Source: an uncultured archaeon (GTDB lineage: Archaea > Aenigmatarchaeota > Aenigmatarchaeia > GW2011-AR5). Taken from it: a stretch of 64,000 nucleotides of DNA. The DNA lies in NCBI GenBank assembly GCA_964373695.1, contig CAYJVT010000002.1:1020-65019 (forward strand), in the 5' to 3' direction. Under the pieces are notes generated by a model. That model saw nothing but the letters and a program-made list of their open reading frames with translations. It was not told the origin of the DNA and searched no databases. Within the stretch, counting starts at the first letter, position 1. Each line of letters starts with the position of its first letter. The position numbers were made by a program, and so were the translations under genes. Of this stretch, positions 11,950 through 41,811 are shown one piece after another.

Positions 11950-14900
11950 ATGGCAGAACAAGATCGTACAATAGAAGATATAAAAAACGATATTTTGAGT
12001 GAAAAAAGAAATATCAAGAGGAGACTACAAAGTGATGAAGACCCTAGACAAATTGCAGAACAACTCATCTCTAGATACGCATTACGCAATCCACATATTA
12101 CCAATAGGGATTGGATTCATGATGGTGTAGTTTCTGCTATTAATGAGATAATAGGAGAAACTACTGGCACTACAATTGGTGGTGGCCACCCAAAATATAA
12201 CCCCTTACAACATCGTGGCCCTCATTATATAGAAGAAAAACACTTTGTGGTAAAGATACTTCAACCGAATCCGCATAATCCTAGGGAAAATAATATAGAA
12301 CTTCATCAAGAGCCTACAACAGGACAGCAGTTTCATGAAAAAATTGTCTTCGATGCAGAGGTTACAGGCGGCAAAGGACCCTTTAGATATAAATGGGAAG
12401 TCCAGGTATCTGGACAGGGATTTACTACTTGGATTCACTTCTGGCCTTACGATAAAAATGGAATTGCTTATGACTGGAGTGATGAAGTTGACAGCAGGGA
12501 TTATAAATTCTTCAAGGGCGGCCTAGATACCATAAGGAACAACTTCCACTATGCCCAGCCGCTTCATGCCACCCATATGGATGACCCGTGGGCAAGCCTG
12601 CCTCCAGGAACTTATAGGGTGCGCGTAACAGTCAGGGATAGCACAAGAAAAGAAGCCCAGGCGGAAACGACTTTCACCGTCGGCGGCCTGATACCGGATA
12701 AAAATTACATAAAAGCCCATATAACAAGCCCTGCGGAATCCGGACACATCAAGGAAATAGAACTGCATACGGACGTGTCAACAGGGGACCGGTGGCACGA
12801 GGCTGTAACATTCAACTGCGAGGTCACGCACGGCATCACGCCCTACACGTATGAATGGAAGATAGACAACCATACCGTATGGCAGGGCACGAACGACATG
12901 TTCAAAACGTTCCAGAGAGGCGGGCAGAAAAATCCTGTCGCAGAGCCCAATAACTCGGATGCAAACCTTGACATACCGGCCGCAAGCCTCACGGAAGGCA
13001 GGCATGAAATCGTGCTGACAGTCACCGACAGAAGGAGAAATACCGCGACAGCAAAATGTTTCCTGATAGTCACATCAAAGCCAAGGGGGAAAATGCGTGC
13101 TGTAATAACACAGCCGAGAGATGAAGACCCAAAAAAAACTTTCGGCAAAGAGCTCAAGGGGGAAAAGGAAGAATCATATCACGAGCCTATAACATTCGAC
13201 TGCGAAGTTTCCGGCGGCTCCGGCAACTACGACTACAAGTGGACTGCCACTTCAATGGATCAGGATCTCAACGAAACTTCGGCTGAAGTCCCGCTAAATT
13301 TCGTGAGCCGGAAAACTTTCACGAGAGGCGGGCAAACGCATCCTGTAAATAATGAAAACGACCCGCAGGCAAGCCTTAGCGAAGGCCTGTACCAGATAAC
13401 ACTCAAGGTCACCGACATAAACAACACGAACGAAACTGCAGAAGCAACAACATGGATACGCATCGGCGAGGAGGAAGGCACTCATGCGCGCTCCCTTTCA
13501 TCGTACGTCGGGATGAGGCCGGCAGCGGCGCGCATAGGGGGCGGCTGGGCGGGCGGGCCCAGGGGTGCTTACACGAGGCGGCAGGCCATGACAGGAATAG
13601 GAGAACGGGCCATGCACAGGGTGCAGCATCCCATGTCGGGCTCGGGCAGAGCCCTCGGTTTCATCAGAAGCGAGAAGAAGGAAGGGACAGGAACATGGGG
13701 CAAAGAGGGCATCCGCGGAGCTATAAGGTCCAATATTGCAGTGCAATCGGCAGTAAACCAGGGAAAGCGCGAGCTCAACAGGTGGGCCAGGCAGATGTTC
13801 AGCCCGGAATTCCAGAGGCTTCAGCGCGAACTAAGAACCCTCACGGATACATGGAGGAGAAGGAGAAGGGAATGGGTTGATGTAAGAAACCAGGCAAGAA
13901 GGCAGTATGGCAGGTGGAGGGATTATCTTAAAGGGCAGGGGGGAGCTGATGCCCTGACAAATTCAGTCACTATCGCCCAGCAGCGCGGACAGGTAAACGA
14001 GGTCCAGGCCAGGCTCCTCATAGACCAGATAAACCAGGCTTACAACAGGTTCACGAAATCCGAGGAGGAGCTGCTGAATTTCAGCCACAGCAAAGCCAGT
14101 GAATTGCAGACAACCATAAATAACAGGATGGAAAAGGTTGCAGAACAGGTTGCAGGCCGCATCATCTACAGGTTCAAGATAAAAGACGGGGCCGCACAGG
14201 ACGATATAAAAAGTGAGCTGAAAGGAGAGGCCCAGAAAATCGCAACAAGCATGGTGGAGAAGGGCAGGGACACCCTATCGGGGCCGCTTGGAATGATAAG
14301 AAGCGCCTCCATGGGAGCAAAAACGGTAGGCGCCTCCTACTACAGCTTCTGGGAATTCTGGAGGGAAATACTGACAGCACCTTTCATATGGGGAACGCTG
14401 TTCGCAGTCGTCCAGTATTTCTTCATACTTACATATGTAGGCTACAATCCGACATACCTTCTGATATATCCGATAATAACGGCTTTATTCACTTTTCTAG
14501 TTTACTTCGGGGACCTTTTCGAGGGCGGGGCGCGGCCTTTTGACCTGTTCAACCATTTAGCATCGGGTGCCATCATCGGGTACACGGCAGTGCTGCTGAT
14601 GCTGGCCTTCGGATTCCAGACTTTTGTCAGCACCGGATGGTTCTGGGGGATATGGATATTCTTCAGCCTTATCGGCATCTTCCAGTTCTACCATTCAGGC
14701 GGATTCAGGATAGTGCTCCAGGGCGGCGTCATAATCCTCCTCTTCGCGTACATAGCGATGGGGCCGTACTCGGGATACTATCAACAGGTCATAGACCAGG
14801 TAAGAGGGCCTGTTGTCGTCGCGTACGATGCGGTGGAGAAGACGGTCGGCGACGTCTACCTGCTGGCAACGAACCCGACGGAGTGGTACGCCAGGCAGCA

Positions 14901-17034
14901 GGTCCAGAATGTAAGGCCGGAGAAGTCAACTGTCGCGGCGCGGGGACTGGAGATCACGCTGTTCGACGCGCTGCCTGCGAGCGTGCCGGCCGGGCAGCAG
15001 TTCGCAGTTACAGCTGTCCTGAAGCACGAAGGCGTGCTGGACAACGTCACCGACATGAAAGTGGCGTTCTCGTGCAATCAGTGGTGCCTAATTGACGGCG
15101 TCACTGCCACTGATAAAGGCGTAAGCAGGACAAGCAAAGGGGCTTTCATGATAAATAATGCCGTGAATGGCCAGAGCATCCTGCTGAAGGGCGAATCAAT
15201 GGTGGCATCGTTCTCCGGCTTCATTTCAAAATCAGTGACCAACAGGGAGAACGAGTACAGGCTGGCAAAGGTCACGATGAACGTTTCGTACAAATACTCA
15301 ACAACAAGCTCGCTCTTCGTCGAGGTGGTAAACAGCGAGGAGCTCAACAAGAGGACCAACGAGGGAAAGAACTTCAGGAACGTGGTCGCGATAGGCAAGA
15401 ACGGCCCGGCGCAGCTTTCGCTGAACGTGGGACCGCAGCCCCTGATTGCCGGGAAGAACGCTCTGCTGCTTGTGTCCGTATCGAATTCGCGCGACGACAG
15501 TTCCGTAATACTGAATGAAGGAAGCGAAATCACGATAAGGATGCCGCGTTCAGTCGGCAGCGGACTGAACTGCGACGGATTTGTCCATGAAGAGACGGAC
15601 GGATATCCGGACATTACCGGCGTGGAGGTCGTGAGGTACAAAGTCTCGCCGAAGACAGCCGACAGGGTGGAGATAAAGGCCTCGGACTTCAATTCCATAT
15701 TCCCGTTCATATGCAGCTTCACGGCAAATGAAGTACGCGGCGCCGGCCCGCTCACGCAGACAGGGCTCGTGACGGCAGAACTGCCTTCATACGAGTTCAC
15801 GGTCATAAAGGAGAAGGAAGTGCCGGTAACAGTGCCGCTAGGCATCCTGTTCGACTCCAATGAAAGGATTTGCCGTGGAGCCTCAGGCCAAGCCGAATGC
15901 ATCTCGCTTGACAAATGCTATTATGAGGATAAGGGAGCCGCAGAAAGCTCCCTGCTCAGCGACTTGTGCCACTCTTGCGCTCAGGAGCCTACATGCGACC
16001 AGTTCATGTCGCAGGAAAGCTGCGAGCAACAGTCAGTATCGCAGTGCGGCCTCTCCAACTGCGGCTGGGATGCCGACGCGAGGAACGAGATAGGCGTGAC
16101 GACAGGCAAGTGCTTCCAGAAGCCCAACCAAATAAACGGTAACGTGAGGAACGCAATACTTTCAGGCACAATAATTGAAAAAATAATACAGGCGTCGAAA
16201 GCCGCCGGATTTGACAGGGAAGATACGAAGAGGGTGCTTGCCGTGGCGGCGCAGGAGAGCGGATTCAGGATGGTCTCCGGAGACGGCGGCGATTCGGCAG
16301 GAGTTTTCCAGCTGAATAAAAGAGCACATCCGACATGGTTCGACCCCCTGCTGTCCGGATGTCCAGACGGCCAAACCGCCTTAGATGAGGACTGCAACAT
16401 CAAGCTTGGCGTTGACTTCATCAAGAGCCTGCACATCCAGTATTTCAACGACAACCCAAGAACTTATGCCTGTGAGAGAGTATACAGCGGTTGGAACGCA
16501 GTTTTCAGATATTATAATGGATGGAACTCGCCATCCACATGCAATGATTTGACAGTAAGTTATGTAGAGAAAGTAAACGGGTGGCTCACATGCAGGGACA
16601 AGGCAAGCTGTGTTGAAAATGCGATAGTCAGGAATATCGATGATGTACGCGGATATGAGAACTTGATGGAAGCCGTATTCGCAGGGAAAGGGAGTGTGGA
16701 TTTCTGCAGGGAAGCCAGAATCGATATAAACAACAAGGCAAACAGCTGGTCATATGGACAGGGATTGTGTATAGAAGGGGAGGGAGGATGCGAAGGGGAC
16801 GGGCAGTGCGGCAAGCTGTTTAAAGACGTCAGAATAGACACCTCAGGCGTCTGCGTGAAGCCTGGCCATGATAATTATGACGATGTTGCGCATCAATTCG
16901 TGAATGCAGGAAAACTCCAGAGCGGCGCCGGCATCTGCTGCTATTCAGATGAAAGCGGCAACATAAATGCAAACAGGTGCAAAGCCGCTTACAGCCAGTG
17001 GTTCGGCTCATCGCCGTTATTCTCCACTGTATAA
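11950..17034 (+). CDS. Giant (1694 aa) multidomain membrane protein: 3 PKD-like repeats, Gly/Arg-rich linker, multi-TM block, beta-rich ectodomain, lytic-transglycosylase (SLT/GH23)-like domain, Cys-rich tail
   Basis: Three ~130-aa repeats with CEV(T/S)GGxGxYxYKW ... G(T/R)YxVxLTVTD (PKD-like). Five or six TM helices around aa 790–930. SLT signature AVAAQESGF...GDSAGVFQLNK...YSGWNAVFRYYNGWNS. Many Cys in CxxC/CxC arrangements C-terminally. Confidence 0.85.
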   Translation: MAEQDRTIEDIKNDILSEKRNIKRRLQSDEDPRQIAEQLISRYALRNPHITNRDWIHDGVVSAINEIIGETTGTTIGGGHPKYNPLQHRGPHYIEEKHFVVKILQPNPHNPRENNIELHQEPTTGQQFHEKIVFDAEVTGGKGPFRYKWEVQVSGQGFTTWIHFWPYDKNGIAYDWSDEVDSRDYKFFKGGLDTIRNNFHYAQPLHATHMDDPWASLPPGTYRVRVTVRDSTRKEAQAETTFTVGGLIPDKNYIKAHITSPAESGHIKEIELHTDVSTGDRWHEAVTFNCEVTHGITPYTYEWKIDNHTVWQGTNDMFKTFQRGGQKNPVAEPNNSDANLDIPAASLTEGRHEIVLTVTDRRRNTATAKCFLIVTSKPRGKMRAVITQPRDEDPKKTFGKELKGEKEESYHEPITFDCEVSGGSGNYDYKWTATSMDQDLNETSAEVPLNFVSRKTFTRGGQTHPVNNENDPQASLSEGLYQITLKVTDINNTNETAEATTWIRIGEEEGTHARSLSSYVGMRPAAARIGGGWAGGPRGAYTRRQAMTGIGERAMHRVQHPMSGSGRALGFIRSEKKEGTGTWGKEGIRGAIRSNIAVQSAVNQGKRELNRWARQMFSPEFQRLQRELRTLTDTWRRRRREWVDVRNQARRQYGRWRDYLKGQGGADALTNSVTIAQQRGQVNEVQARLLIDQINQAYNRFTKSEEELLNFSHSKASELQTTINNRMEKVAEQVAGRIIYRFKIKDGAAQDDIKSELKGEAQKIATSMVEKGRDTLSGPLGMIRSASMGAKTVGASYYSFWEFWREILTAPFIWGTLFAVVQYFFILTYVGYNPTYLLIYPIITALFTFLVYFGDLFEGGARPFDLFNHLASGAIIGYTAVLLMLAFGFQTFVSTGWFWGIWIFFSLIGIFQFYHSGGFRIVLQGGVIILLFAYIAMGPYSGYYQQVIDQVRGPVVVAYDAVEKTVGDVYLLATNPTEWYARQQVQNVRPEKSTVAARGLEITLFDALPASVPAGQQFAVTAVLKHEGVLDNVTDMKVAFSCNQWCLIDGVTATDKGVSRTSKGAFMINNAVNGQSILLKGESMVASFSGFISKSVTNRENEYRLAKVTMNVSYKYSTTSSLFVEVVNSEELNKRTNEGKNFRNVVAIGKNGPAQLSLNVGPQPLIAGKNALLLVSVSNSRDDSSVILNEGSEITIRMPRSVGSGLNCDGFVHEETDGYPDITGVEVVRYKVSPKTADRVEIKASDFNSIFPFICSFTANEVRGAGPLTQTGLVTAELPSYEFTVIKEKEVPVTVPLGILFDSNERICRGASGQAECISLDKCYYEDKGAAESSLLSDLCHSCAQEPTCDQFMSQESCEQQSVSQCGLSNCGWDADARNEIGVTTGKCFQKPNQINGNVRNAILSGTIIEKIIQASKAAGFDREDTKRVLAVAAQESGFRMVSGDGGDSAGVFQLNKRAHPTWFDPLLSGCPDGQTALDEDCNIKLGVDFIKSLHIQYFNDNPRTYACERVYSGWNAVFRYYNGWNSPSTCNDLTVSYVEKVNGWLTCRDKASCVENAIVRNIDDVRGYENLMEAVFAGKGSVDFCREARIDINNKANSWSYGQGLCIEGEGGCEGDGQCGKLFKDVRIDTSGVCVKPGHDNYDDVAHQFVNAGKLQSGAGICCYSDESGNINANRCKAAYSQWFGSSPLFSTV

Positions 17035-17075
17035 CGGGCACAGCCGCCGGATGAAATCATATCCTGTTTATTTGC

Positions 17076-17185
17076 TTGTTTCACTATAAGGGAAGAATAC
17101 ATCTTCGGCCGTGATGCCTTGCTTGTTTCACATATAGTGCCAAAGAAAAGTATATATTGAATCTTTTCTTTGAGCACTATAAGCA
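17076..17185. repeat. ~100-bp palindromic element, copy A
   Basis: GTTTCACATATAGTGCCAAAGAAAAG-TATATATTGAAT-CTTTTCTTTGAGCACTATAAG, with an upstream partial arm GTTTCACTATAAG. Homologous to the copies at 5529 and 52502. Confidence 0.7.
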
Positions 17186-17328
17186 TTGTATGAATTTTTA
17201 TTCAAAGCCACAGTCTTATATCCCTTCAAATTGACAATATAAACAAAAAGAGAGGCGCCATGCGCAAACGCCTCTCTCCGGCCTGCATGAAAGCGCGGCC
17301 TTGCAGCCCTCCGCGAGGAGTTGGAGGA

Positions 17329-19050
17329 CTACTTCCCGATGCCGCGGTCTTTGCGGAACTTCTTCGGGTTCCGCGCGAGGTCAACGATGTCCTTCTGCAC
17401 ATTATCAATCTCGAGGAAGAGCGAGTCGATGCTGCTCTTGACGGACGGCATGTCTCTCACTGCATCATGCAGAGAGGCGATGCGCTCTTCCATCGCCTTG
17501 ATGCTGTCACTGCTGGCCGCCGCGTTGCGCTGCACGGCGCACAGCATATCGCGAAGGTCGCCGACCTGCTGAGCCAGGGTATCGCAGACCGCCTTCTTCC
17601 CGGCTGGCGCAGCAGGCCCGCCGAGACGCTGCCGGATGCGGGCGTCGATGCGGCTCCGGTCGCCGGGCCAGGTGACTTTCCCAGGCTCGAGGAGACCGAC
17701 CGCCGGAGCTGTCGGGAAGCCTTCCCCGCGGAGGACAACCATGTCGTTGAACTTGATGCCTTCGGGCACAGTGACGATGTACGGCTCGCCCCAGTCATCG
17801 TACTGTACGAGCGGGTATTTGGTCGAGATAGAGGTCGTAGACCTGTAGCCTGCTGTGTAGGCCGTCGGCGGCTTCATGTCGAAAGATGCCGGCAGCTCAA
17901 CCACATCCGCGTAGTCGACCAACCAGAAGGTCACCAGGCCTGCCTTCATGTTCTTGAGGAACTCACGCGCCGGAGCTTCCTCCCTCTTCCGTATCTCGAC
18001 GACAACCTGGTTCTTCCCGCCCGAAAACTCCGGCGCGTCGTACTGCACCCGGAGCTTGGTGATGACCTCGCCGGCGCGCAGCGTGGCGATGTCACGCAGC
18101 ACGCTCTGCCAGAGGAAAGGCTGACCGTCCTGCACGATGACCATATCCTGCCGCTTCGGGATGCGGAACGCCGACGTCCGACGCCTCAGCTCCAGCGGCC
18201 CGCCAGGAGTGTACTCGAGCTCGTCGCCCGGGATGAACATTCCAGCGATATTGCGACACTCCTCCTTTGTTCCTGCGAAGCGCAGCTCCTCTCCTTTCGT
18301 TGTTGTGGGGCGGTACTCGGCCGTCCCGTCTGGATTCACTACAACCTTCTCGCTGGCCAGCACGAAGGTCACGACATTGACTTGTGAAGGACCGGGGTAT
18401 ACTGCAGGCGCCTGGACGGCGGCTTCTGGCTCTTCGTCGTTTGGAGTAACTTTTGGAGTAACTTTTGGAGTAAACCACGTGCCCGGGTTCCACCAGTCGG
18501 CGGCGGCGGGGGAGGCGGCGAAGATGACGGCCAGAACCACCATGCCTTTGAGTAACTCTCTGGCATGGATGATGTGTCCTCTGACGCCGTCCCCTTCGTC
18601 GTCATCGGGTGTAACCCTTGAGATTCCGTCCAATTCTAACATAATCTTCCTGATGTTATTCCGACGGCGCCCGCGCTTGCGCATCATGCAGACGGCGAGT
18701 GGGATGCCGCCGACGAAGAAGATGATGTTGAGGAACAGTACCCAGCCTGCCAATGCATTCATCTTGCTCTCCCTCTTGTTGCGCACGTGCACTTCATCAC
18801 GTGAAGTTGTGGGTGAGGACTGCTTGTTGTGAGTGGGTTCGGCTGTGACAGCGGCCTGATTATGGCCTTCAGGACTGCCGGAAATCACGGCCGCGAAAAC
18901 AGAGGCCACTACCACGAGAACCAGTATTGTGACACCGGCCATGATTGCCGCTCCGAACCAGCTGAGGCCGAGTCTCACGCAGATACGAAGCAGGTACAGA
19001 ACTGCCAGTATCAAAGCCAGTACGGCTACTGCATAGGGGATGATGCTCAT
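17329..19050 (-). CDS. Hypothetical membrane protein with PKVTPKVTP repeat, encoded in a high-GC island
   Basis: 573-aa ORF. N-terminal TM helices, a second TM block (~aa 100–125), a Pro-rich tandem repeat, and a C-terminal coiled-coil. A long antisense ORF also exists because of high GC; minus strand chosen for its TM/coiled-coil organisation. Confidence 0.5.
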   Translation of the reverse strand: MSIIPYAVAVLALILAVLYLLRICVRLGLSWFGAAIMAGVTILVLVVVASVFAAVISGSPEGHNQAAVTAEPTHNKQSSPTTSRDEVHVRNKRESKMNALAGWVLFLNIIFFVGGIPLAVCMMRKRGRRRNNIRKIMLELDGISRVTPDDDEGDGVRGHIIHARELLKGMVVLAVIFAASPAAADWWNPGTWFTPKVTPKVTPNDEEPEAAVQAPAVYPGPSQVNVVTFVLASEKVVVNPDGTAEYRPTTTKGEELRFAGTKEECRNIAGMFIPGDELEYTPGGPLELRRRTSAFRIPKRQDMVIVQDGQPFLWQSVLRDIATLRAGEVITKLRVQYDAPEFSGGKNQVVVEIRKREEAPAREFLKNMKAGLVTFWLVDYADVVELPASFDMKPPTAYTAGYRSTTSISTKYPLVQYDDWGEPYIVTVPEGIKFNDMVVLRGEGFPTAPAVGLLEPGKVTWPGDRSRIDARIRQRLGGPAAPAGKKAVCDTLAQQVGDLRDMLCAVQRNAAASSDSIKAMEERIASLHDAVRDMPSVKSSIDSLFLEIDNVQKDIVDLARNPKKFRKDRGIGK

Positions 19051-19821
19051 CTCTTCTCCTTCCCTTGCGCGTTAAGCTGTTGTAATGGGAGTGGGTGGAT
19101 GTGAACGTTAGCCTTTTTTTCATAGTCTCTCCTTCCGGAAATCGAGGCAGGATTCATCAGGGCTAGCTGTTTCCGGCTTTCATCCATGCGGAGACTTTGG
19201 CTTCCACCGCCCTGATTTTCTCTAAGGCAACCTTCAAGTCTTCCGCGTTTTCGATGCCGGCGGACTTCAGAACGAATATGATGATCGGAATCAACTACAA
19301 TCTGCCCTCGCAGATTGTCCTGAATGACGGGCATCCTCAGACCTGCCGTTGGGGTTGACGTATCTATGCGCGACATCTGTTCATGAATCACACAGCTGCT
19401 GGACGATGCCCTCTTTGCTGCTGCCGCATGCTGCGCATATCGCCATCATCTGTCCTTTCTGCTATGATGTCTTCCGACATCCTTAGATAAAATTAAGTCG
19501 TGTAGAATTCTAGGTTTGGCTACTTTTTTCCTGCCGTGTTTTCCCTCGCCCAGACGGGCGGCTGAAGGAATGCTCCCGTCCTTTTCAGGTGGGGAACATT
19601 CCAAAGGCTGACATGACTCGACAGAAGCGTGTTCTGGATCGATGTCAGACCTGATTTTTTTGTGTATTTGGTTTGAAGGCCGTGAAGCGGATTTTCACCA
19701 CTTAACAGCCGTGACATTTATTTAAAAGACTACCGCAGAAAAGTATTTAAAGGTTTTGTTACTTTTGGGTGGTTTTAAAATCGATATGGCAATGCCGATT
19801 AATTAAAATTCGATTCGGGAT

Positions 19822-20634
19822 TTAAACGCCCATAACGAGGCGCGAGAAATTGCGGAGGCCGGGGCCCAGGCCGAGGACGAGGACTACTATCTTCAGGAAA
19901 GTCCTTTTCTGCACCTCGTTGGAGAGCTCCTTGTCAAGGGCGTACAGCACGAGGGGCACGACGACAAGCTTCAGAATGAACATGGAGGCGGGGCCCAAAA
20001 GGCCTATAATAAAGCCAGGCAGGACGTGCTGCTCAAAGTAGTTTGGAAAGAACTGGAGCGCCACGAAGGTCGTGGTGGCGTCGAACATATGCACGGCAAT
20101 TAGGAATGAATTCTCTTCAGAGAGAAAGTTCCTGATTCTTGCGCTGCCAAGCTTTCTTCCTGCAAAAATCGCTGCTGCCCATGCTGCTGTGATGCCTAGC
20201 ATGGCGTACAATGCAAAGGCGCTTTGCAGCGTCATCTGCGATACTGCAATAATGACAAAAATCATGCCGAGCGAAAACCATATCTTGTAATAAGGCGTTT
20301 TTGTCCATCTTTCCATGAGCTTTGAAAAGAGCAAGGCAGCCAGAGCAATGACAAAAATTGAAATATATATCAATGGAGTTATGAGGAATATGTTCTTGGC
20401 AAGGCCGGCGAATTCGCGGTAATCCTCAAGGGCGCGCAGGAAGCCTCCCAGCATCACGAAGGGCACTATGCTGAAAAAGAACTTCCTGTCTATCTCTATT
20501 CGAAGGCGCCGGAGCAATCTGTAGGTTAAAAACGCCGCCGCTATCAGCAAGACAGCGTACACAGCAGTGTTATAAACATTGTATCCGCTGCCGTTCAGTA
20601 TTGGGTCGACAAAATATTCCTTGAAGAAACCCAT
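19822..20634 (-). CDS. DUF63-family polytopic membrane protein
   Basis: 270 aa, about 7 TM helices. N-terminus MGFFKEYFVDPILNGSGYNVYNT and the FEQHVLPGFIIG motif resemble archaeal DUF63 proteins. Confidence 0.65.
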   Translation of the reverse strand: MGFFKEYFVDPILNGSGYNVYNTAVYAVLLIAAAFLTYRLLRRLRIEIDRKFFFSIVPFVMLGGFLRALEDYREFAGLAKNIFLITPLIYISIFVIALAALLFSKLMERWTKTPYYKIWFSLGMIFVIIAVSQMTLQSAFALYAMLGITAAWAAAIFAGRKLGSARIRNFLSEENSFLIAVHMFDATTTFVALQFFPNYFEQHVLPGFIIGLLGPASMFILKLVVVPLVLYALDKELSNEVQKRTFLKIVVLVLGLGPGLRNFSRLVMGV

Positions 20635-20670
20635 ACTAACTTTAATTATGGGAAAACCTAATAAATCAAT

Positions 20671-21729
20671 ATGAAATCGGCGTATATAGCTGTTCTCTTG
20701 CTCGTTTTTACAGCCGGATGCACCGGACTGTCCGGCGTGTTCGGGGGCGACATACTCAACATAAAGCAGAACCTCATCCAGGAGGGGCAGAAGGACATAA
20801 TCGTCATAAAGGATGTCTCGACGATACCCAAATCCCCCATGCTCCCTGAACAGTCGTTCGTGCTTACGATGCTTCTGGAGAACGTCGACAAGACCGAGGA
20901 CGCCACGAATGTCGTGGTGGACCTCTTCAACGCACCGACCGTGAAAAGCGACAAAGAGGAGTCCCGGGGAAGCGTATGCAATGCCGGAAGCGGAAGCGTA
21001 TGCCTCCCGGACAAGTGCAAGAGTAGTGAAAACGGAAAATGCATTGTCGAGACAACAATGCTTCCTGGAGAACAGATTCCGGTCAATTTCTACCTGAAGA
21101 CGCCAACTGAGGATGAAATAGTAGGCATAGAGACCAAGCCGGCCCTCGACTACAGGGTCACATACGACTTCGAGTCGTCATCGTTATATATAATGCCGTC
21201 AGTCAACCTGGACGAGATAATAAAGAACCAGAGGAGCAACGACAAGGTCAATGTCCAGGTGACGAAGTCCTACGGCACCGGCCCTGTCAGGATTGACATG
21301 GACCTCTTCGGCACGCCGTACATACTTTCGGGACAGTCGGCGACATTCATATTCAAGATAACGAATACAGGAGTGGGCAACGTCATAGGCTCCCAGATAG
21401 ACGCCGGAAATTTTGAGGTAAGCATACCGAAGAGCCTGATAGGAAGCGGCAGCCTTATGCTTCCTGGAGGCGGCGTCTTCGAGTCCGGCCAGTATACGCA
21501 GACGACAGAGAGGTTCTCGTGTAGTGGTGATGAAACGTACGTGACATGCACGAACGCCGACGCCATACAGATGTACAAGGACCAGACGCGCGGCTCGCTG
21601 CGCTTCGAGGTGCAGGGAGTGGCCGACATAAACCAGCCCTTCGTATCGTACGACATAAGGGCGTCTGTGAAATACAGGTACGAGTTGCGCGGCACCCAAG
21701 AGATAACTGTAAAGCCGTTTGAAAGCTGA
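20671..21729 (+). CDS. Secreted lipoprotein, paralog 1 of 4
   Basis: Signal peptide plus lipobox LVFTAGC. Beta-rich. C-terminal YRYE...ITVKP strand motif shared with the downstream paralogs. Confidence 0.7.
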   Translation: MKSAYIAVLLLVFTAGCTGLSGVFGGDILNIKQNLIQEGQKDIIVIKDVSTIPKSPMLPEQSFVLTMLLENVDKTEDATNVVVDLFNAPTVKSDKEESRGSVCNAGSGSVCLPDKCKSSENGKCIVETTMLPGEQIPVNFYLKTPTEDEIVGIETKPALDYRVTYDFESSSLYIMPSVNLDEIIKNQRSNDKVNVQVTKSYGTGPVRIDMDLFGTPYILSGQSATFIFKITNTGVGNVIGSQIDAGNFEVSIPKSLIGSGSLMLPGGGVFESGQYTQTTERFSCSGDETYVTCTNADAIQMYKDQTRGSLRFEVQGVADINQPFVSYDIRASVKYRYELRGTQEITVKPFES

Positions 21730-21734
21730 TTTTT

Positions 21735-22604
21735 ATGAGATATGCAATAATCCTTGCATTCCTGATAGCCGCGAGCGGATGCGTCTCCCAGAGCGCCTCC
21801 TATGGCGGGCTGGTTGTCAGCATGTTCGCTGACCCGCCGCAGGTATTCCAGAACCAGGCCACAACGCTTTTCATCGACATAGACAATAGGGACGTGAAGA
21901 AGGTCAACAATGTCGTCTTCGAGGTGTTTGACACAGGCATCATGCGCATCATGGATGGCACAACCGTTTCGGCATGCAGGAAATCCTTCCCCAAGCTAGT
22001 GCCGAAGGAATTCCAGACTTTCTCATGCAGGCTGGCAGCAGGGAGCGTTGGCGAGACCATTGTCAACAGAATAAGCGCCAAAACCACTTTCAGCGCCGAG
22101 CTGAACGCGGTGCAGCTCATAGAAATGATATCCAGGCAGGAATACGAGAGGAGGAAGGCGGCCGGCACCTTCATCACAGCGCCAAGGAAATATACTTATT
22201 CCGACAGCAACGTGGCGCTTGACATAGAATTCAGCGAGGATATGCCGGTGATAGAAAGGAGCGGAAAGAGGTACTTCATACACATGACCGTCAGGAATAC
22301 AGGGAACGGCTACATAAGGGAGCTGGAGCCCGGTGATTTCATAGTCACCCAGAAAACGTCTGAAAGTTTGCAGATACTTCCAGACATAGAAACCGTGAGT
22401 GTTATCAACACCCAAGCCGACAACCTCGTCAGGTGCGACGACTTCGGGGAGAAGCTTTCACCAATAGGCGACAAGTTCCCCAGAGTGACGTGCGAGTTCG
22501 TGCCTCCCAAAAAAATAGGCGTCATAGGCAATTACCCAATGGAAGTGAAGATAAACTACGATTACGAGACGAGGCAGAATCTCAACATAAGAATAATAAA
22601 ATAA
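21735..22604 (+). CDS. Secreted lipoprotein, paralog 2 of 4
   Basis: Lipobox LIAASGC. Shared C-terminal KINYDYETRQNLNIRI motif. Confidence 0.7.
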   Translation: MRYAIILAFLIAASGCVSQSASYGGLVVSMFADPPQVFQNQATTLFIDIDNRDVKKVNNVVFEVFDTGIMRIMDGTTVSACRKSFPKLVPKEFQTFSCRLAAGSVGETIVNRISAKTTFSAELNAVQLIEMISRQEYERRKAAGTFITAPRKYTYSDSNVALDIEFSEDMPVIERSGKRYFIHMTVRNTGNGYIRELEPGDFIVTQKTSESLQILPDIETVSVINTQADNLVRCDDFGEKLSPIGDKFPRVTCEFVPPKKIGVIGNYPMEVKINYDYETRQNLNIRIIK

Positions 22605-22658
22605 AGCCCAAAAAATCTTTTTAAAGAGGTGTAATCATAACTATAAAGAGGTATAAAA

Positions 22659-23633
22659 ATGAAGATTGGACTTTTCGCCGTTCTTGCTCTTATATTTGTG
22701 GTCGGATGCGTCGGCGGCGGCACGAGGCCGACCACTATCAGCGACACAGAAGGCGTCCGCATCTCGTCATTCACGGCAACGCCCTCTGTAACCGATGTTT
22801 TGTCGGGCGACACAGTCATATTCGATGTCGAGGTTGAGAACATCGGCGGGACAACAGCTTCTGATGTCGAGGTCACCCTGTCCGGCATAGAGAACCAGTG
22901 GAGGACGACCGGCGGCGTCCCGGCACCACAGGTCATAGCAAAGTCATTCTCATCATTGAGACCGCCGCAGGCGGAAAGGAACATAGCCGGCGACTTCCGC
23001 ATCGCGCAATGGGAATACATGACGCCAAGAATACCCGAAGGTCTCAGGACGCCGCTGAACATAGAGTCACGCGTCACTTATAAGTATAATACAAATGGCT
23101 TCCTCCAGCTTACCGCTGTGAACGACGAGGAATTCAGGAGGCAGCAGGTCATAGGCTCCTCGATAGACCCACCTGTAGTGCAGAACAGCGCAGGACCGCT
23201 GAAACTGTCGGTGCCGTCGACTGAGAAAAGCAGCTTCGTGATAGTTGACACAGCCTCGACCGAGCCCGAATTCATATACCCGCTCAAGATAGAATTCAGG
23301 AACGTCGGCGCCGGATTCCCCCTGGGAACTGATTCAACCAACCAGGGCAGGCTGACCGGAACCATAAAGCTTCTCGGGCCTGGCGTGGAGTTTTCCAGCT
23401 GCCTCGGTGTTACGAGCGGCCGCGAAGTCGCCCTCCAGGACAGCGGCGTCAATGACGTCATAGTCAAGCTCAGGGACACCCAGAATGTTCCTATCGTCTG
23501 CAACCTGAAATTTACAAAATCGGAATGGCAAAACACGCCCACCGACAAGGTGAGCCTTGTCTTCAACATAGACTACACGTATTTCACCAAGCAGACTGCC
23601 ACAGTGAACGTTCTGGGAAGAAGAACGGAGTAA
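22659..23633 (+). CDS. Secreted lipoprotein with CARDB-like N-domain, paralog 3 of 4
   Basis: Lipobox IFVVGC. FTATPSVTDVLSGDTVIFDVEVENIGGTTASDVEVTL matches the CARDB pattern. C-terminal NIDYTYFTKQTATVNVLG. Confidence 0.7.
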   Translation: MKIGLFAVLALIFVVGCVGGGTRPTTISDTEGVRISSFTATPSVTDVLSGDTVIFDVEVENIGGTTASDVEVTLSGIENQWRTTGGVPAPQVIAKSFSSLRPPQAERNIAGDFRIAQWEYMTPRIPEGLRTPLNIESRVTYKYNTNGFLQLTAVNDEEFRRQQVIGSSIDPPVVQNSAGPLKLSVPSTEKSSFVIVDTASTEPEFIYPLKIEFRNVGAGFPLGTDSTNQGRLTGTIKLLGPGVEFSSCLGVTSGREVALQDSGVNDVIVKLRDTQNVPIVCNLKFTKSEWQNTPTDKVSLVFNIDYTYFTKQTATVNVLGRRTE

Positions 23634-23685
23634 TTTTTTCTTTTGATTAAAGTATTTTATATACAGAAGTTTCTATAATTATTAC

Positions 23686-24945
23686 ATGAAGGTCTATCTT
23701 CTTATGATTCTCGGCCTTGTGCTCGCGGCCGGGTGCGTTTCGCAGGCGAAGAACCCGAACAACGGTATCATTATAAACGAGTTCACGGCCGACCCGAAGA
23801 TTGCGGAATACGGCGACACCGTGAGATTCTTCCTGGACGGCGAGAACATCGGGGGCACTACGGCCCAGTGCGTGACGACAGAGCTTTACGGGCTTGAGGG
23901 AGGATGGACGGACCTTACAGGACAGCTGTTCGCCATTCCGTATGTAGGGCAGACGATAAACGCCGGGCAGCCAGGCATCACAATAGGCTTCGAGTCGTGG
24001 GGATTCAACATACACAGGGTTAACGACCGGTGGGGAGGCTCCATTTTCTACAACGACCTAAGCGTCGAAGGCGGAAGGAGAATAGTCGCGTCCATTGAAG
24101 GCGGCGACTTCTCGGTCAGCGGCGGCTTTTACAGCATAACGACGGCTATAGACACGTCTTTCAGGAGATTCGCAGCAGATTATTGTACTTACATAGGCGG
24201 AAGGTTCCCTGGCAAGATAAAGTTTGAGCCAGTCCTCTCTCCGCCTCTTCCGGAAAGGAACAAGCCTGGGCAATCTTTCACTGCGGACTGGATTCTGAAG
24301 CCCCCTCTGATACCTGAGGGCCTGTCTGTCGACTATCCTGTAACAGCCAGGACGTCATTCTTCTACACGTCGAACGCGCAGGTTAACATACCAGCTTACA
24401 GCAAGGCCGAATACAAGAGAAGGCAGGACATAGGGGAAGCCGTCGACCAGCCGCTCAATGTCGTCAACACCCATGCGGCCCCGATACAGGTCGGTATAAC
24501 CAGGGGCGCAAGTCCCATGGTTGTCAACACCGACACTACATTTTCGGCCCTGCCGGAAGAGACTTTCAATTATCTCATTGAACTGCGGAACGTAGGACAG
24601 GGATATCCCCTGCCTTTCAGCGACGTGCAGACAACCGTAGGGAACGACATAAGCGTCGAGAGCGGATTTGTCATCGCGACGATGAGCATAGCAGGCCCTG
24701 GCGCGCGTTTCGAGGACTGCCTGGGCCAGAGCGGACAGGAAGTTCTGATAGGCCCTGATATAGTCGCGAACCTGGTGAAGCTGCGCTCCGACGGAAAGGC
24801 CCCCTTCGGATGCAAGGTGGCGATAAACAAGGGCGCATGGCAGACGACGCCCGTCGGCACGGTCAGCATAACGTTCAACATAATGTACAGGTATTATGTG
24901 GACAAGCACGCAACAGTGACCGTGATAGGGCCGTCAAGGTCTTAG
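23686..24945 (+). CDS. Secreted lipoprotein with CARDB-like N-domain, paralog 4 of 4
   Basis: Lipobox LVLAAGC. FTADPKIAEYGDTVRFFLDGENIGGTTAQCV. C-terminus NIMYRYYVDKHATVTVIG is near-identical in pattern to paralog 3. Confidence 0.7.
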   Translation: MKVYLLMILGLVLAAGCVSQAKNPNNGIIINEFTADPKIAEYGDTVRFFLDGENIGGTTAQCVTTELYGLEGGWTDLTGQLFAIPYVGQTINAGQPGITIGFESWGFNIHRVNDRWGGSIFYNDLSVEGGRRIVASIEGGDFSVSGGFYSITTAIDTSFRRFAADYCTYIGGRFPGKIKFEPVLSPPLPERNKPGQSFTADWILKPPLIPEGLSVDYPVTARTSFFYTSNAQVNIPAYSKAEYKRRQDIGEAVDQPLNVVNTHAAPIQVGITRGASPMVVNTDTTFSALPEETFNYLIELRNVGQGYPLPFSDVQTTVGNDISVESGFVIATMSIAGPGARFEDCLGQSGQEVLIGPDIVANLVKLRSDGKAPFGCKVAINKGAWQTTPVGTVSITFNIMYRYYVDKHATVTVIGPSRS

Positions 24946-26509: not shown

Positions 26510-26595
26510 TGGGCTCGGCAGGAATTGAACCTGCGGCCTCCTGCGTGTGAAGCAGGCGTCATACCAATGTCCGCGATGCTCTAGACTACAAGCCC
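26510..26595 (-). tRNA. tRNA-Val(CAC) with ~13–14-nt D-loop intron
   Basis: Minus-strand GGGCTTG...CGAGCCC acceptor; anticodon arm CCTGC-TTCACAC-GCAGG; T-arm GCAGG-TTCAATT-CCTGC. D-region is 30 nt instead of 17 (GTC-TAG[AGCATCGCGGACAT]TGGTAT-GAC). Confidence 0.8.
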
Positions 26596-27200: not shown

Positions 27201-27209
27201 ATTATTAAT

Positions 27210-27368
27210 GGGCCGGATGAGATTTGAACTCACGACTTCAGTCGGCGGAACCTTCCGGATGCCGCCGTCTCCTGTTGGCTTAGAGCAATATTTTGTTCTT
27301 GATGCACGCATGTTTTAACAAAATACGTCATATAAGACAGGTGCTCTACCAGCCTAAGCTACCGGCCC
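27210..27368 (-). tRNA. Intron-containing tRNA (tentatively Ile, anticodon UAU), about 159 nt with two inserts
   Basis: Acceptor GGGCCGG/CCGGCCC; D-arm GCTT-AGGCTGGTA-GAGC; anticodon stem CCTGT...ACAGG enclosing 61 nt (loop CTTATA + ~54-nt intron); T-arm GTGAG-TTCAAAT-CTCAT; discriminator A. A further ~32-nt hairpin insert lies between the anticodon stem and T-stem. Confidence 0.7.
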
Positions 27369-38159: not shown

Positions 38160-38657
38160 ATGATAAAGAAAATCAGAATACCGGATGAAAGGATACCGGT
38201 TCTCATAGGGAAGAATGGAAAAACTAAAGCCATGATACAGAGACTGACGCACACAAAAATCGACATTGGGGAAGAAGCGACAGTGGAAGGCGAGGCTGTG
38301 GATGTCATGACCGCAGAGAGCATCATAAAAGCCATCGGCAGAGGATTCTCACCGGAAGCTTCAGAAATCCTGTGCAGGGAAGACAGCACGCTGGAGATAA
38401 TCCAGCTCCCGAAAGAGAGAAAAGAATTAAATAGGATAAAATCAAGATTAATAGGAACCAAAGGGAAGTGTAGGAGGAACATAGAAAACCTTACCAAAAC
38501 CCGCATATCGGTCTTCGGAAAGACAGTTTCGGTCATAGGTCCGTACGATAACGTGAGGTTTGTGGTAGAGGCGCTTCAAAGACTTATAAAAGGCGACACA
38601 CACAGTTCCGTTTACAGGTTTCTGGAAGAGAACCAGGAAAAAATGAATTTTGAGTAA
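38160..38657 (+). CDS. KH-domain RNA-binding protein (Dim2/Pno1-like)
   Basis: Two KH units with IPVLIGKNGKTK and LIGTKGKCRRNIE GxxG loops. Start set at MIKKIRIPDER; the upstream in-frame part overlaps aIF1A. Confidence 0.7.
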   Translation: MIKKIRIPDERIPVLIGKNGKTKAMIQRLTHTKIDIGEEATVEGEAVDVMTAESIIKAIGRGFSPEASEILCREDSTLEIIQLPKERKELNRIKSRLIGTKGKCRRNIENLTKTRISVFGKTVSVIGPYDNVRFVVEALQRLIKGDTHSSVYRFLEENQEKMNFE

Positions 38658-41600
38658 GCCGGTGATGATCATGTCAAAGAAAACCGCGGAAGACTTCGCG
38701 AAGCAACAGAAGGAAATAAGCATATCAGAATTCTTTGAAAAGAACAAGCATCTTCTTGGCTTTGACAATCCGACAAAAGCCCTTCTCATGGCTGTGAAAG
38801 AAGCTGTCGACAATTCTCTTGATGCATGTGAAGAGGCCGAGATACTTCCTGACATAACCGTGAAAATAAAAAACCTGAAAGAAGATGTATACAAAGTATC
38901 GGTTCAGGACAACGGTCCGGGAATAGTGAAAGAACAGGTTCCGAGGATATTCGGCAAATTGCTCTATGGCTCTAAATTTCACCGATTGCGCCAGTCCAGA
39001 GGTCAGCAAGGAATTGGGATATGCACAACACCAGATACTTTAATACCTCTTGCAGACGGGCGCATAAAAAGGATAGAAGATATCGTAGAGTCGGAATTAG
39101 AAGAGGAAATATTTACACTCGCACCGGACATGAAACTAGTGCCAAACAAAATGAAAAAATTCTGGAAATTACCTGCGCCGGAAAAAATGATAAAAATAAA
39201 AATGCTCGGGGGCGGGAGCCTGACACTAACAAGAGAGAATCCTGTGCTAATAAAGACAGATTTCGGCTTAAACTGGAAACCCGCTGAGCTTGTAGCGCCA
39301 AGAGATTATATTGCTATGGCAAGAAATCTCTCTATAAATCATAATGAAAAAAAGATTCCACTTATCAGTTTGCTGGATGAAAATGTGCGTGTTGACAACT
39401 ACGAATTTCTTAGTGAAGTGCTGAGTATTTTGAAAAAAAGACATGGTACATGGTCTAAATTAGGAAATATATACGGCCTGCAAAAGGATCTTCTGAAGGG
39501 GTGGAAAAAGATGGGCATCAGAAGACGTCCAACACTAAAACAATATATTATGCTAGCTAAAGATGCAGGCTTCTCTGAAGATTATATAACAGAGAGCATA
39601 ATACGGGTTGGCAGGCTTGGGACTTATATAAAAATTTTTCGATATATGACCCCTGAACTAGCACGTCTCGCTGGCTTGGTGGCTGGCGATGGTAATATCC
39701 AGGCAAAGAGAAAAAACAGATGGGGTACAAACATATCTTTCTGGAATAATGATACAAAACTTATAGAAGAGTTCTGCAGCATAGTTTACAATTTTTTTGG
39801 TATAAGACCGAATGTTTATGCCCATACAAAAGGCCGCGGGACAGGGGCACAATTCTCGTCCTCAATAGTTGCTGATATTTTAGAAAAACTCGGTGTCCCA
39901 AGAGGTAGAAAAAGCGAGAAATTTGAAATCCCTGATTTGATACGACAAAACGGAGATCTGTCTGCTGCTTATCTTGGGGGGTTGTTTGATGCAGAAGGCT
40001 CTGTCAGCAGCGACAGAAAATGCATAACTCTTATGCTGAGTAACAAAAATGTAATCAATGTCATACGTCTTATGCTTCTTAGATTTGGCATAGTAAGCAG
40101 GATTAATAAAGCAGGAAAACATACAAGATTAATTATATCATCTGCGAAAAATGTAGAAAAATTCAAGAATATAATAGGCTTTACAATTAAGACAAATAAA
40201 GCAAAATTAGATTCATTAAAATTCTATAATGACAGAAAATGCAATCTTGAAGTCATACCGCATGTTAAGTATGCTGTTAAAAATTCTGTAAAAGAGATCG
40301 GTACCAGTTATTATGCTTTAAGAAGCCCAAATGAAATTTCTTCTATAAGAAGAGGCAGTGCAGTAAGCCATGAAACTCTTAATTCTTTATGTGAAGTGCT
40401 TGTTGAAAATTCCGGGGAAAGACTACCGCTTCCAGTACAAGAACTTGTAGGAATGGCGAATGCTGATGTAACATGGGCAAAGGTAATAGAAACAAAAGAA
40501 ATTGACTCTCCATGTGAATATGTTTATGACATAACTATGGGCATAGGTAATAATTTCGTAGCAAATGGGTTTGTAATACATAATTCAGCCGTTGTCCTGT
40601 ATTCGCAGCTTACCACAGGAAGCCCTACACGAGTTCTTTCAAAGACCGATGAAAAGAAAAAAACCCAGGCGTTTGAACTCATAATAGATACCAAAAAAAA
40701 CGAGCCTGAGATAGTAAAACATGAGGAAAAAGAAGACGGCATACAAGGCACCGGCATAAGGGTTGAGATGGATGTAGTCGGCAGGTACAGGAAGTCACAG
40801 GGAGTGGATGACTATCTTAAGCAGACTTCGATATCGAACCCGTTTGCAAAAATCTCATACAATGCGCCAGACGGGACGAAGATGCTATTTTCGAGGACTG
40901 TCAACGAGCTTCCCGTCCCGCCGAAGGAAATAAAGATACATCCATACGGCGTCGAGTTCGGCATTCTGCAGAGATTCCTCAACCAGACGAATTCGCGCAC
41001 TTTGCAGGCATTCCTCGTGAACGAATTTTCATCCGTTGGCCAGCAGACAGCGAAAGAAATGTGCAATATAGCAAAGCTTGACCCTAATATGAAACCCATT
41101 GACCTGTCAAGAGAGCATATCGAAAAGCTCCTTGGCGCGATGCAAAAAGCAAAGGTGCAGAGGCCGCCTCTCGACTGCCTTTCCCCCATAGGGGAGAAGG
41201 AGCTTGAAAAGAGCCTGAAAAAAGAATATCCGGATGCTGAATTCATAACAACCCTAACCAGGTCGCCTGAAGTCTACAGAGGCAACCCTTTCCAGATAGA
41301 AGTCGGCATAGTCTACGGCGGGCCTGATATAAAATCTGACGGGCCGATAGAAGTTATAAGGCTCGCGAACAGGGTGCCGCTGCTGTATCAGGCCGGTGCA
41401 TGCGCCACGATGGAAGCCATAAAGGAAGTCGACTGGAAGAGATACGGCCTCCAGCAGTCTGGCAATAATTTGCCGATAGGGCCGGTGATACTTGTCGTTC
41501 ACATGTGCTCCGCGTGGGTACCGTTCATATCCGAGAGCAAGGAGGCGATAGCATCCTATCCCGACATAATAAAAGAGATGAAACTCGCTGTACAGGATGC

Positions 41601-41811
41601 CGGCAGGAATCTCTCAAGGTACCTCTCCGGGAAAAGGCGAGCTGGCGATGCCAAGAGGAGAATACAGATATTTGAAAGGTACAGCGCCGAAGTTGCATCT
41701 GCGGTGTCTCTGCTTACAAAAAAATCCGAGAAAGACATAGAGAAAAAACTAAAAAACATGATAGCCCAGAGGACGCATATAAAAGATGAGGAAGAGAAGC
41801 AAGAAATATAG
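38650..41811 (+). CDS. top6B: DNA topoisomerase VI subunit B, interrupted by a 521-aa intein
   Basis: Bergerat-fold ATPase motifs EAVDNSLDA, DNGPGI and GKLLYGSKF...SRGQQGIG|C, then the C-extein with transducer domain. Extein total is about 532 aa. Confidence 0.9.
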   Translation: MSKPVMIMSKKTAEDFAKQQKEISISEFFEKNKHLLGFDNPTKALLMAVKEAVDNSLDACEEAEILPDITVKIKNLKEDVYKVSVQDNGPGIVKEQVPRIFGKLLYGSKFHRLRQSRGQQGIGICTTPDTLIPLADGRIKRIEDIVESELEEEIFTLAPDMKLVPNKMKKFWKLPAPEKMIKIKMLGGGSLTLTRENPVLIKTDFGLNWKPAELVAPRDYIAMARNLSINHNEKKIPLISLLDENVRVDNYEFLSEVLSILKKRHGTWSKLGNIYGLQKDLLKGWKKMGIRRRPTLKQYIMLAKDAGFSEDYITESIIRVGRLGTYIKIFRYMTPELARLAGLVAGDGNIQAKRKNRWGTNISFWNNDTKLIEEFCSIVYNFFGIRPNVYAHTKGRGTGAQFSSSIVADILEKLGVPRGRKSEKFEIPDLIRQNGDLSAAYLGGLFDAEGSVSSDRKCITLMLSNKNVINVIRLMLLRFGIVSRINKAGKHTRLIISSAKNVEKFKNIIGFTIKTNKAKLDSLKFYNDRKCNLEVIPHVKYAVKNSVKEIGTSYYALRSPNEISSIRRGSAVSHETLNSLCEVLVENSGERLPLPVQELVGMANADVTWAKVIETKEIDSPCEYVYDITMGIGNNFVANGFVIHNSAVVLYSQLTTGSPTRVLSKTDEKKKTQAFELIIDTKKNEPEIVKHEEKEDGIQGTGIRVEMDVVGRYRKSQGVDDYLKQTSISNPFAKISYNAPDGTKMLFSRTVNELPVPPKEIKIHPYGVEFGILQRFLNQTNSRTLQAFLVNEFSSVGQQTAKEMCNIAKLDPNMKPIDLSREHIEKLLGAMQKAKVQRPPLDCLSPIGEKELEKSLKKEYPDAEFITTLTRSPEVYRGNPFQIEVGIVYGGPDIKSDGPIEVIRLANRVPLLYQAGACATMEAIKEVDWKRYGLQQSGNNLPIGPVILVVHMCSAWVPFISESKEAIASYPDIIKEMKLAVQDAGRNLSRYLSGKRRAGDAKRRIQIFERYSAEVASAVSLLTKKSEKDIEKKLKNMIAQRTHIKDEEEKQEI
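39022..40584 (+). mobile_element. Intein with LAGLIDADG homing-endonuclease domain in top6B
   Basis: Begins with Cys directly after GIGI. LAGLVAGDGNI and LGGLFDAEGSV dodecapeptides. Ends VANGFVIHN with +1 Ser. About 30% GC against ~45% in the exteins. Confidence 0.85.

Follow-up and report, generated by a model that had tools for sequence, protein, structure and literature searches.

A codon-deviant, partly decayed islet in an Aenigmatarchaeota chromosome, probably of foreign origin, with one retained membrane-protein gene

DPANN archaea rely on cell-cell contact with their hosts and are thought to gain many of their genes by transfer. In the classical picture of amelioration, acquired islets of orphan open reading frames (ORFans) are atypical in composition, patchy in their spread and prone to decay, and they are usually AT-rich. 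In Aenigmarchaeota, most of whose genomes have a GC content of 25-48%, horizontal gene transfer (HGT) is regarded as common (PMC8407114), and an islet such as the one described here is therefore expected rather than surprising. Our subject is a GC-rich cassette in a stretch of 64,000 nucleotides (nt) from an uncultured Aenigmatarchaeota archaeon (hereafter the window; GenBank assembly GCA_964373695.1, contig CAYJVT010000002.1). The window is archaeal chromosomal DNA, with intron-containing tRNAs, a thermosome gene, Pelota/eRF1, Topo VI and a class I tRNA synthetase, and the cassette occupies the slot between a gene of the AliA/AliB family (DUF63) and a convergent gene for a giant surface protein. 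An intact ORFan gene for a protein of 573 amino acids (aa) remains in it (17329-19050, minus strand), as delimited by the list of open reading frames (ORFs), hydropathy, homolog search, substitution rates and composition. We consider it reasonably probable that the cassette is an old, partly decayed foreign islet, acquired by the ancestor of a narrow Aenigmatarchaeota clade, of which one gene has been retained.

A scan with the DUF63 protein returned two Candidatus Aenigmatarchaeota metagenome-assembled genomes (MAGs), L003 (JACPAH010000005.1, 94% identical) and the distant L004 (JAZDJX010000035.1, 54%). Measured against described ORFan islets, the window cassette is similarly atypical in composition and codons, patchy, homolog-less and partly decayed, with one gene under purifying selection. 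It differs in being GC-richer than its host, in lacking an integrase, tRNA or attachment (att) signature, and in being common to a small clade rather than strain-specific, with no recognisable donor. A classical integrase-mediated island would have the same atypical composition and patchy presence (here four close lineages versus L004), but the cassette holds no integrase or recombinase, tRNA insertion site or att repeats. Remnants of integrated archaeal viruses or plasmids are also comparable, the cassette being a small ORFan block for membrane and Zn-ribbon proteins in a hotspot that collects toxin-antitoxin and TnpB genes; unlike them, it has no hallmark gene, no match in viral or plasmid collections and no element borders.

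Composition and coding content of the islet

GC content jumps at about position 17250, and sliding-window composition gives values of 0.55-0.705 for the 200-nt windows from 17200 to about 19100. The 573-aa gene has a GC content of 0.60 against a whole-window mean of 0.479. The top-ranking 1.8-kb window is the island itself (GC 0.597, about three standard deviations over the mean, z ~+3), and the runner-up elsewhere reaches 0.557. From 19051 to 19775 the GC content is host-like at 0.48. The original prediction, made from the window sequence alone, had described an island of 60-70% GC over a background of about 45%, extending from 17200 to 19520. The island is real and its left edge holds at about 17250, but GC falls to host level by about 19050-19100, and the true values are a mean of 60% with peaks of 70% against 48%. 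No other part of the window has a tetranucleotide distance as large as that of the island gene (z 3.3), and the sliding-window GC and tetranucleotide checks that had been suggested agree in placing both the GC maximum and the most deviant signature at the island.

The strongest foreign mark is the choice of Ile and Arg codons, which is independent of amino-acid content. ATA accounts for 9% and ATC for 82% of Ile codons in the island gene, against 69% ATA in the host (chi-square p 1e-17), and AGR accounts for 24% of its Arg codons against 78% in the host (chi-square p 4e-13). The other 40 genes of the window have ATA at 0.48-0.81 of Ile codons and AGR at 0.46 or more of Arg codons, apart from one doubtful 273-aa ORF for the latter; avoidance of both is confined to one of 41 genes, the 573-aa gene. 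The cassette genes of L003 share the bias, with ATC making up 84% of their Ile codons. In this genome the Ile and Arg families are far better at telling foreign DNA apart than GC alone.

Two long plus-strand ORFs (375 and 231 aa) lie over the 573-aa gene. Differences between the window and L003 within the conserved core number 44, 37 and 99 at minus-frame codon positions 1, 2 and 3, and position 1 of the 375-aa ORF corresponds to sense position 3. Both plus-strand ORFs are shadows of the real minus-strand gene, high-GC artefacts as had been proposed.

The large gene begins with an ATG that follows a Shine-Dalgarno-like GGAAGGAG. Its protein opens with four hydrophobic segments, passes through a Pro/Lys/Thr-rich linker into a conserved alpha/beta core at residues ~215-480, and ends with a helical C-terminus that is variable. 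Hydropathy places the hydrophobic segments at residues 7-25, 38-56, 104-122 and 166-184, in line with the transmembrane (TM) helices claimed earlier. The predicted tandem DNA repeat proved exact: the 12-nt unit TTTGGAGTAACT occurs in 2.8 copies with 100% identity (18440-18473, minus strand; tandem repeat finder) and codes for PKVTPKVTP in the linker past the fourth hydrophobic segment. Protein alignment indicates that this repeat is lineage-specific, the L003 homolog being without it. A coiled coil had likewise been proposed; the C-terminus is helical, and the weak database matches there are all to coiled-coil proteins.

A word-indexed search of 5.8 billion clustered proteins returned the protein itself and a single cluster of a 704-aa homolog (59% identity), which NCBI lists as hypothetical, from a Candidatus Aenigmarchaeota MAG. 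An exhaustive phmmer search with the core against 1.84 billion representatives yielded three repeat-driven artefacts (P0003-P0005) and nothing else. The 573-aa protein was found neither in phage and plasmid tblastn searches nor in degenerate-pattern scans of JGI metagenomes and IMG/VR, and the bacterial or viral best hits anticipated by the original prediction did not materialise. Searches of the cassette proteins against Pfam, NCBIfam, PHROGs, PADLOC and PDB sequences gave only matches with E values above 0.01, confined to TM or coiled-coil regions, apart from a best PHROG value of 0.008. Profile searches lent no support to any specific activity of the large protein.

Segments 1 and 2 of the large protein would pair as a hairpin, RKRGRRRNNIRK and an acidic loop that is conserved (LDGIS..TP..DEGD.VR.H) come after segment 3, and segment 4 runs into the Pro/Lys/Thr or acidic linker. 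An RKRGRRRN motif stands directly past segment 3. The conserved Arg-rich loop between helices 3 and 4 is most likely cytoplasmic and the protein most likely resides in the cytoplasmic membrane; by the positive-inside rule, the alpha/beta core and helical tail would then lie outside the cell. We tentatively propose, as a possibility short of an even chance, that the large protein is anchored at its N-terminus, faces outward and acts in the envelope or in cell contact, perhaps oligomerising through its tail. This role is suggested because the partner genes in relatives encode membrane or secreted proteins and because the neighbourhood is envelope-related.

An archaeal lipobox lipoprotein, with [LVI][ASTVI][GAS]C after an N-terminal signal peptide, was considered and rejected. 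In the L003 homolog, segment 4 ends in a lipobox-like VSGC, near residue 250 and beyond three TM segments, and the window protein reads VIFAASPAAAD at the corresponding site, without Cys. AliA and AliB are the first archaeal lipoprotein-biogenesis enzymes to be identified (PMC12462473). The cassette recalls this pathway in that it adjoins an AliA/AliB gene (PF01889) and lipobox-like genes and has the VSGC of the L003 homolog. It departs from the pathway in the missing Cys of the window protein and in the internal position of the L003 motif, and the adjacency is possibly coincidental.

The cassette and its signals in related lineages

The 704-aa homolog is encoded on contigs L002, L003/L006, L007, L008 and L009. 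In the L003 group the order is DUF63, VapB-VapC, a conserved non-coding region, an intact 94-aa gene, about 330 nt, the 704-aa gene, a 158-aa gene, a terminator and the giant gene. Contig L005 (ENA), found through the 158-aa protein at 79% identity, runs from the 3' half of the large gene across the 158-aa gene into the end of the giant gene. Contig L010 (JGI), found through a 20-nt pattern from the non-coding region, has a different PIN gene, the promoter, the hairpins, an intact 157-aa single-TM gene and the start of the large gene, and is without the Zn-ribbon ORF. The cassette thus stands at one slot in the window and in three other lineages (L003/L007, L005 and L010). Spacers outside both of its ends are homologous among lineages, and there is therefore no sharp element border. 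In the distant L004 the DUF63 and giant genes are still adjacent (giant proteins with 32% aa identity over 1164 residues), and the slot between them holds unrelated 536-aa and 141-aa ORFs with a host-like GC content of 35%. The 536-aa protein was examined as a diverged ortholog of the large protein and rejected (BLASTP E 2.4; hhalign probability 0.1%). A truly empty slot was not seen among the relatives examined.

Two VapBC/PIN modules, different from each other, have been inserted after the stop of DUF63 and ahead of the promoter of the cassette (L003 8711-9371; L010 1024-1437), with none in the window, and in L003/L006 a TnpB (OrfB_IS605/Cas12f-like) gene lies just upstream of DUF63, on the side opposite to the cassette. 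These independent insertions, the L003 TnpB and a palindromic repeat in the left spacer of the window (described below) make the slot a variable hotspot. An IS200/IS605-type or palindrome-associated element was rejected as the identity of the cassette itself, since no transposase is found within it and the L003 TnpB lies beyond DUF63. A self-BLAST of 19690-19830 against the window gave short chance matches only, the hairpin core (19520-19690) and the terminator being outside this search. Contig L002, whose ends match the ends of homology, was considered as a free 3.7-kb replicon; this was dismissed by its 99.9% identity to the chromosomal locus L003. On reading, its leading bases are sequencing-adaptor sequence, and its 3' break probably reflects a 75-nt polymorphism beside the terminator.

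Pooled over the relatives, the cassette comprises a promoter, a four-hairpin leader, genes for a 94-aa Zn-ribbon protein, a 157-aa single-TM protein, a 573-704-aa multi-TM protein and a 158-aa signal-peptide protein, and a terminator. In none of the lineages seen are all four genes intact together, and the window copy is the most reduced: a leader, a Zn-ribbon pseudogene, one intact gene and the terminator. The pseudogene (19164-19449, minus strand) was delimited by comparison with the intact L003 gene for the 94-aa CxxC...CxxC protein, and its lesions are a TGC-to-TGA change that creates a stop in frame and two insertions of 1 nt each. Between it and the large gene, alignment with L003 and L010 reveals a deletion scar (19051-19107, minus strand) at which about 330 nt of L003 are missing. 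Those 330 nt in L003 are themselves a frameshifted remnant of the gene for the 157-aa TM protein, intact in L010. The gene for the 158-aa protein is absent from the window. The original prediction had described about 750 bp of non-coding DNA to the right of the large gene with a stop-bounded coding fragment, ...FVLKSAGIENAEDLKVALEKIRAVEAKVSAWMKAGNS. The fragment is real and is the C-terminal part of the Zn-ribbon pseudogene; "non-coding" does not describe the region, which holds the whole pseudogene and a conserved promoter and structured leader (~19520-19751). Homologs of the 158-aa protein were found in clade members only, and the 94-aa protein matched only itself. The 157-aa and 158-aa proteins gave no viral loci in IMG/VR scans, and Pfam returned nothing for the accessory cassette proteins. 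From its signal peptide, alternating strands and C-terminal Phe, the 158-aa protein gives the impression of a bacterial outer-membrane beta-barrel.

The age of the cassette was examined through nonsynonymous and synonymous divergence (dN and dS; Nei-Gojobori, window versus L003). The core of the large gene (215-480) has an aa identity of 0.79, a dN/dS of 0.21 and a dS of 0.76, and is under purifying selection. The N-terminal part (1-214) is less conserved (identity 0.42, dN/dS 0.33, dS 1.50), and the C-terminal part (481-573) is the least so (identity 0.22, dN/dS 0.69, dS 1.57). For the giant gene the corresponding values are an identity of 0.73, a dN/dS of 0.24 and a dS of 0.84 over the whole gene, and 0.82, 0.18 and 0.65 over its C-terminal part; DUF63 has an identity of 0.94, a dN/dS of 0.09 and a dS of 0.31. 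Because the core dS of 0.76 equals that of the giant gene (0.65-0.84), the cassette predates the split of the lineages and has been inherited vertically since. The acquisition had originally been thought recent, a view that orthologs at the same position in relatives were expected to contradict. Such orthologs are present in three related lineages, and together with the core dS and the degraded state of the window copy, with one pseudogene and two genes absent, they replace recent transfer with acquisition at the level of the clade, followed by decay.

Upstream of the pseudogene, the DNA from 19520 to 19775 is 83-90% identical to L003 and L010, exceeding the 76% nt identity of the coding core. 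Folding and comparison of three lineages delimit four hairpins at 19520-19715 (minus strand), a probable structured 5' RNA. The sense strand folds at -98 kcal/mol with a z of -4.5 (none of 100 shuffles as good), against a z of -1.6 for the antisense strand, and 98.8% of the cells in 54 predicted pairs remain standard pairs across the three lineages. In L003, three double (compensatory) changes and one single change give hairpin 2 a rebuilt apical stem. This covariation is suggestive only, because it comes from three distinct sequences, the compensatory changes all fall in one lineage and 16 of 500 shuffles do as well. The hairpin region probably belongs to the cassette transcript as a structured leader at its 5' end; a role at the DNA level instead is conceivable. 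No family reached its gathering score in an Rfam scan of the leader and island. The sole family to score was the ZMP/ZTP riboswitch (RF01750), on 19541-19603. It was rejected, since its 19.1 bits fall short of the gathering score (39) and the conserved block of 25 nt at the centre of the model is missing. The leader resembles this riboswitch in having a hairpin followed by a GCCGCCCGUCUGGGC-like segment that aligns to the model, but its CUGGGC core is not conserved, reading UUUGGGC in L003 and UUAGGGC in L010.

An archaeal-type promoter candidate precedes the leader (19718-19762, minus strand) and is conserved in alignments with L003 and L010. It contains an A-rich stretch resembling a TFB-recognition element (BRE) together with TTTAAATA (19744-19751), and a second element, TTTTAAATAA, lies at 19718-19727. 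We take the A-rich stretch and TTTAAATA to resemble the archaeal BRE/TATA consensus, and presume their promoter role from this likeness. At the other end, a hairpin scan found a terminator-like hairpin of 13 pairs followed by TTTTTGTTTAT (17237-17279, minus strand), which marks the 3' end of the cassette. It is kept in L002, L005 and L007 with an altered inner stem sequence. A 75-nt segment with this hairpin is missing from MAG L003 (at ~13137) and present in Logan contigs of the same population (L007 ~5463-5540), and three Logan contigs break off inside it, at a common point or a few bases from it. These breaks suggest a population polymorphism, or an artefact of the MAG assembly, between short ATAT repeats.

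Origin of the cassette

Codon avoidance, the tetranucleotide outlier and the absence of the cassette from the L004 slot support the foreign origin that had been proposed. We infer that the ancestor of one narrow Aenigmatarchaeota (DPANN) clade would have taken up a small operon-like cassette horizontally, from an unsampled source that preferred CGN codons for Arg and ATC for Ile. The cassette would have landed in the variable slot between the AliA/AliB gene and the convergent giant gene and been passed on vertically ever since. In the window lineage the accessory genes would have decayed or been deleted and the large gene alone kept, its core under purifying selection. Its product would hold four N-terminal helices in the cytoplasmic membrane and turn the alpha/beta domain and the helical or coiled-coil tail outward.

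Several observations weigh against this account. The transfer is deduced from composition and distribution alone, with neither a donor nor an out-of-clade homolog. Cassette homologs outside the clade were found in none of the collections (5.8 billion clustered proteins, 1.84 billion representatives, phage, plasmid and viral sequences and JGI metagenomes), and because no collection searched holds a donor, acquisition from outside is favoured rather than proved. The outgroup evidence is a single distant locus, L004. No integrase, att repeat or adjacent tRNA marks an arrival route in scans of the locus: there is no integrase or recombinase ORF in 17035-19822, Pfam, NCBIfam and PHROG matches of the cassette proteins are non-significant, the flanks show only short direct repeats at chance level, and no tRNA lies closer than those at 6.7 kb and 26.5 kb. 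The synonymous codon likelihood of the whole gene is mildly atypical (z ~-1.5). The giant host gene also has short patches of at least 65% GC (13451-13700 and 14801-15000), and it is because of this local heterogeneity that GC alone is a weak marker of foreign DNA here. Finally, the function of the large protein is read from sequence features, both AlphaFold models being unusable (mean predicted local distance difference test score, pLDDT, of 41.5 for the 573-aa protein, from a 2-sequence alignment, and of 28.9 for the 158-aa protein).

Part of this evidence would suit a native, lineage-specific, fast-evolving envelope gene whose GC content arose from its amino-acid content and from local mutational or selective bias, without HGT. 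The GC content of its third codon positions (GC3, 0.74) lies within the host range of 0.43-0.76, and amino-acid content accounts for part of the excess GC, the first and second codon positions (GC1, 0.62, and GC2) being raised by frequent Ala, Gly, Pro, Arg and Val. Its position is fixed in four lineages, its neighbours are also envelope genes, and both the GC-rich patches in the giant gene and the want of a donor are as expected. We nevertheless regard a native gene as unlikely, since the avoidance of ATA and AGR is unique among 41 genes, independent of amino acids and repeated in the L003 cassette genes, and since the tetranucleotide signature is an outlier and the L004 slot holds unrelated genes. 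A remnant of an integrated virus or plasmid of the DPANN archaeon or its host, with the hairpins as a DNA origin or attachment structure, is in our view less likely still. No integrase, Rep, capsid or packaging gene is present; the phage, plasmid and IMG/VR collections give nothing; flanking direct repeats, an adjacent tRNA and a sharp border are lacking; and the strand-asymmetric folding and the conserved upstream BRE/TATA favour a transcribed RNA. Such a remnant would nonetheless account for a set of genes that are all ORFans for small Zn-ribbon, membrane or secreted proteins, for the hotspot with its VapBC/PIN modules in L003 and L010 and TnpB nearby in L003, for the lineage-specific gene decay and for the highly structured hairpin region. 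A provirus remnant in particular was rejected, the best PHROG match (E 0.008) being to an HNH-type Zn ribbon with nothing from phage tblastn or IMG/VR scans. An assembly chimera or contaminant fragment is scarcely credible: the composition is atypical, the genome is metagenome-derived and several Logan contigs end near the cassette terminator, but independent assemblies from different samples cross both junctions (L007 from DUF63 to the giant gene, L005 from cassette to giant gene, L001 from DUF63 to cassette), and the contig breaks are probably due to the 75-nt polymorphism.

An old foreign islet, which we continue to prefer, would be an example of a common outcome that is rarely documented in detail, a cassette in a neighbourhood of envelope genes cut down to one retained gene. 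Its conserved structured leader and ORFan membrane-protein family would merit attention should transcriptomes or cultures of these archaea be obtained, the leader being the most unusual element. A bolder proposal, which we put forward as speculation with poor odds, is that it represents a new DPANN envelope or host-contact module, in which a multi-TM anchor with a new extracellular fold and small membrane and secreted partners would have been captured from a host or an undescribed DPANN mobile element and placed under a new four-hairpin regulatory RNA of about 180 nt. On present evidence the islet appears fairly ordinary and of modest interest, bearing on no long-standing question.

Neighbouring genes and other features of the window

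The DUF63 protein beside the cassette matches PF01889 (E 1e-67), a family now named AliA_AliB. The region 19822-24945 holds this gene followed by three genes (starts at 20671, 21735 and 22659) with signal peptides that end in the lipobox-like Cys motifs TAGC, ASGC and VVGC; the four may form a lipoprotein and biogenesis-enzyme cluster. On the other side, the giant gene (11950-17034, plus strand) encodes a protein of 1694 aa that combines PKD/Ig-like repeats and a block of TM helices with a lysozyme/SLT-like domain at its C-terminus. Its Pfam scores are weak (for SLT_3, 24.8 bits where the cut-off is 27), and we take the pattern ES...GVFQL...YYNGW to be motifs of the lysozyme/SLT family. A domain of peptidoglycan-lytic type is odd for a DPANN archaeon.

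The palindromic element that had been noticed to the left of the island is real. Self-BLAST places it at 17057-17182 (core 17133-17181), with a second copy at 52502-52598 (core 52550-52597). It is an imperfect palindrome, TATAGTGCCMAAGAAAA ... TTTTCTTKGAGCACTATA, and both copies are intergenic. The homologous spacers of L005 and L007 are without it. It appears to be a later spacer insertion outside the cassette, and because the 17.1-kb copy is absent from the homologous spacer of relatives it looks small, mobile and similar to a miniature inverted-repeat transposable element (MITE).

Elsewhere in the window, the intein-bearing Topo VI region at 38.5-41 kb is the second tetranucleotide outlier (z 3.0) and has a low GC content of 0.42. 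The genes for the Topo VI B and A subunits (38650-41811 and 41822-44506, plus strand) each carry an intein bearing a LAGLIDADG homing-endonuclease domain. A T-arm-like GGGGGTCGCGGGTTCGAAAGC lies at 52440-52500, 5' of the class I tRNA synthetase gene, and may derive from a tRNA, as a fragment or a half-gene; no tRNA was called there, nor did Rfam match one in an E-value scan of 52150-52650. Rfam also identified a 160-nt tRNA with a long intron (27209-27368, minus strand) that ARAGORN missed. The other two tRNAs (6696-6787, plus strand, and 26510-26595, minus strand) are over-long at 86-92 nt, and a "tRNA-Cys (aca) at position 26" reported by ARAGORN is probably a mis-parsed intron-containing tRNA.

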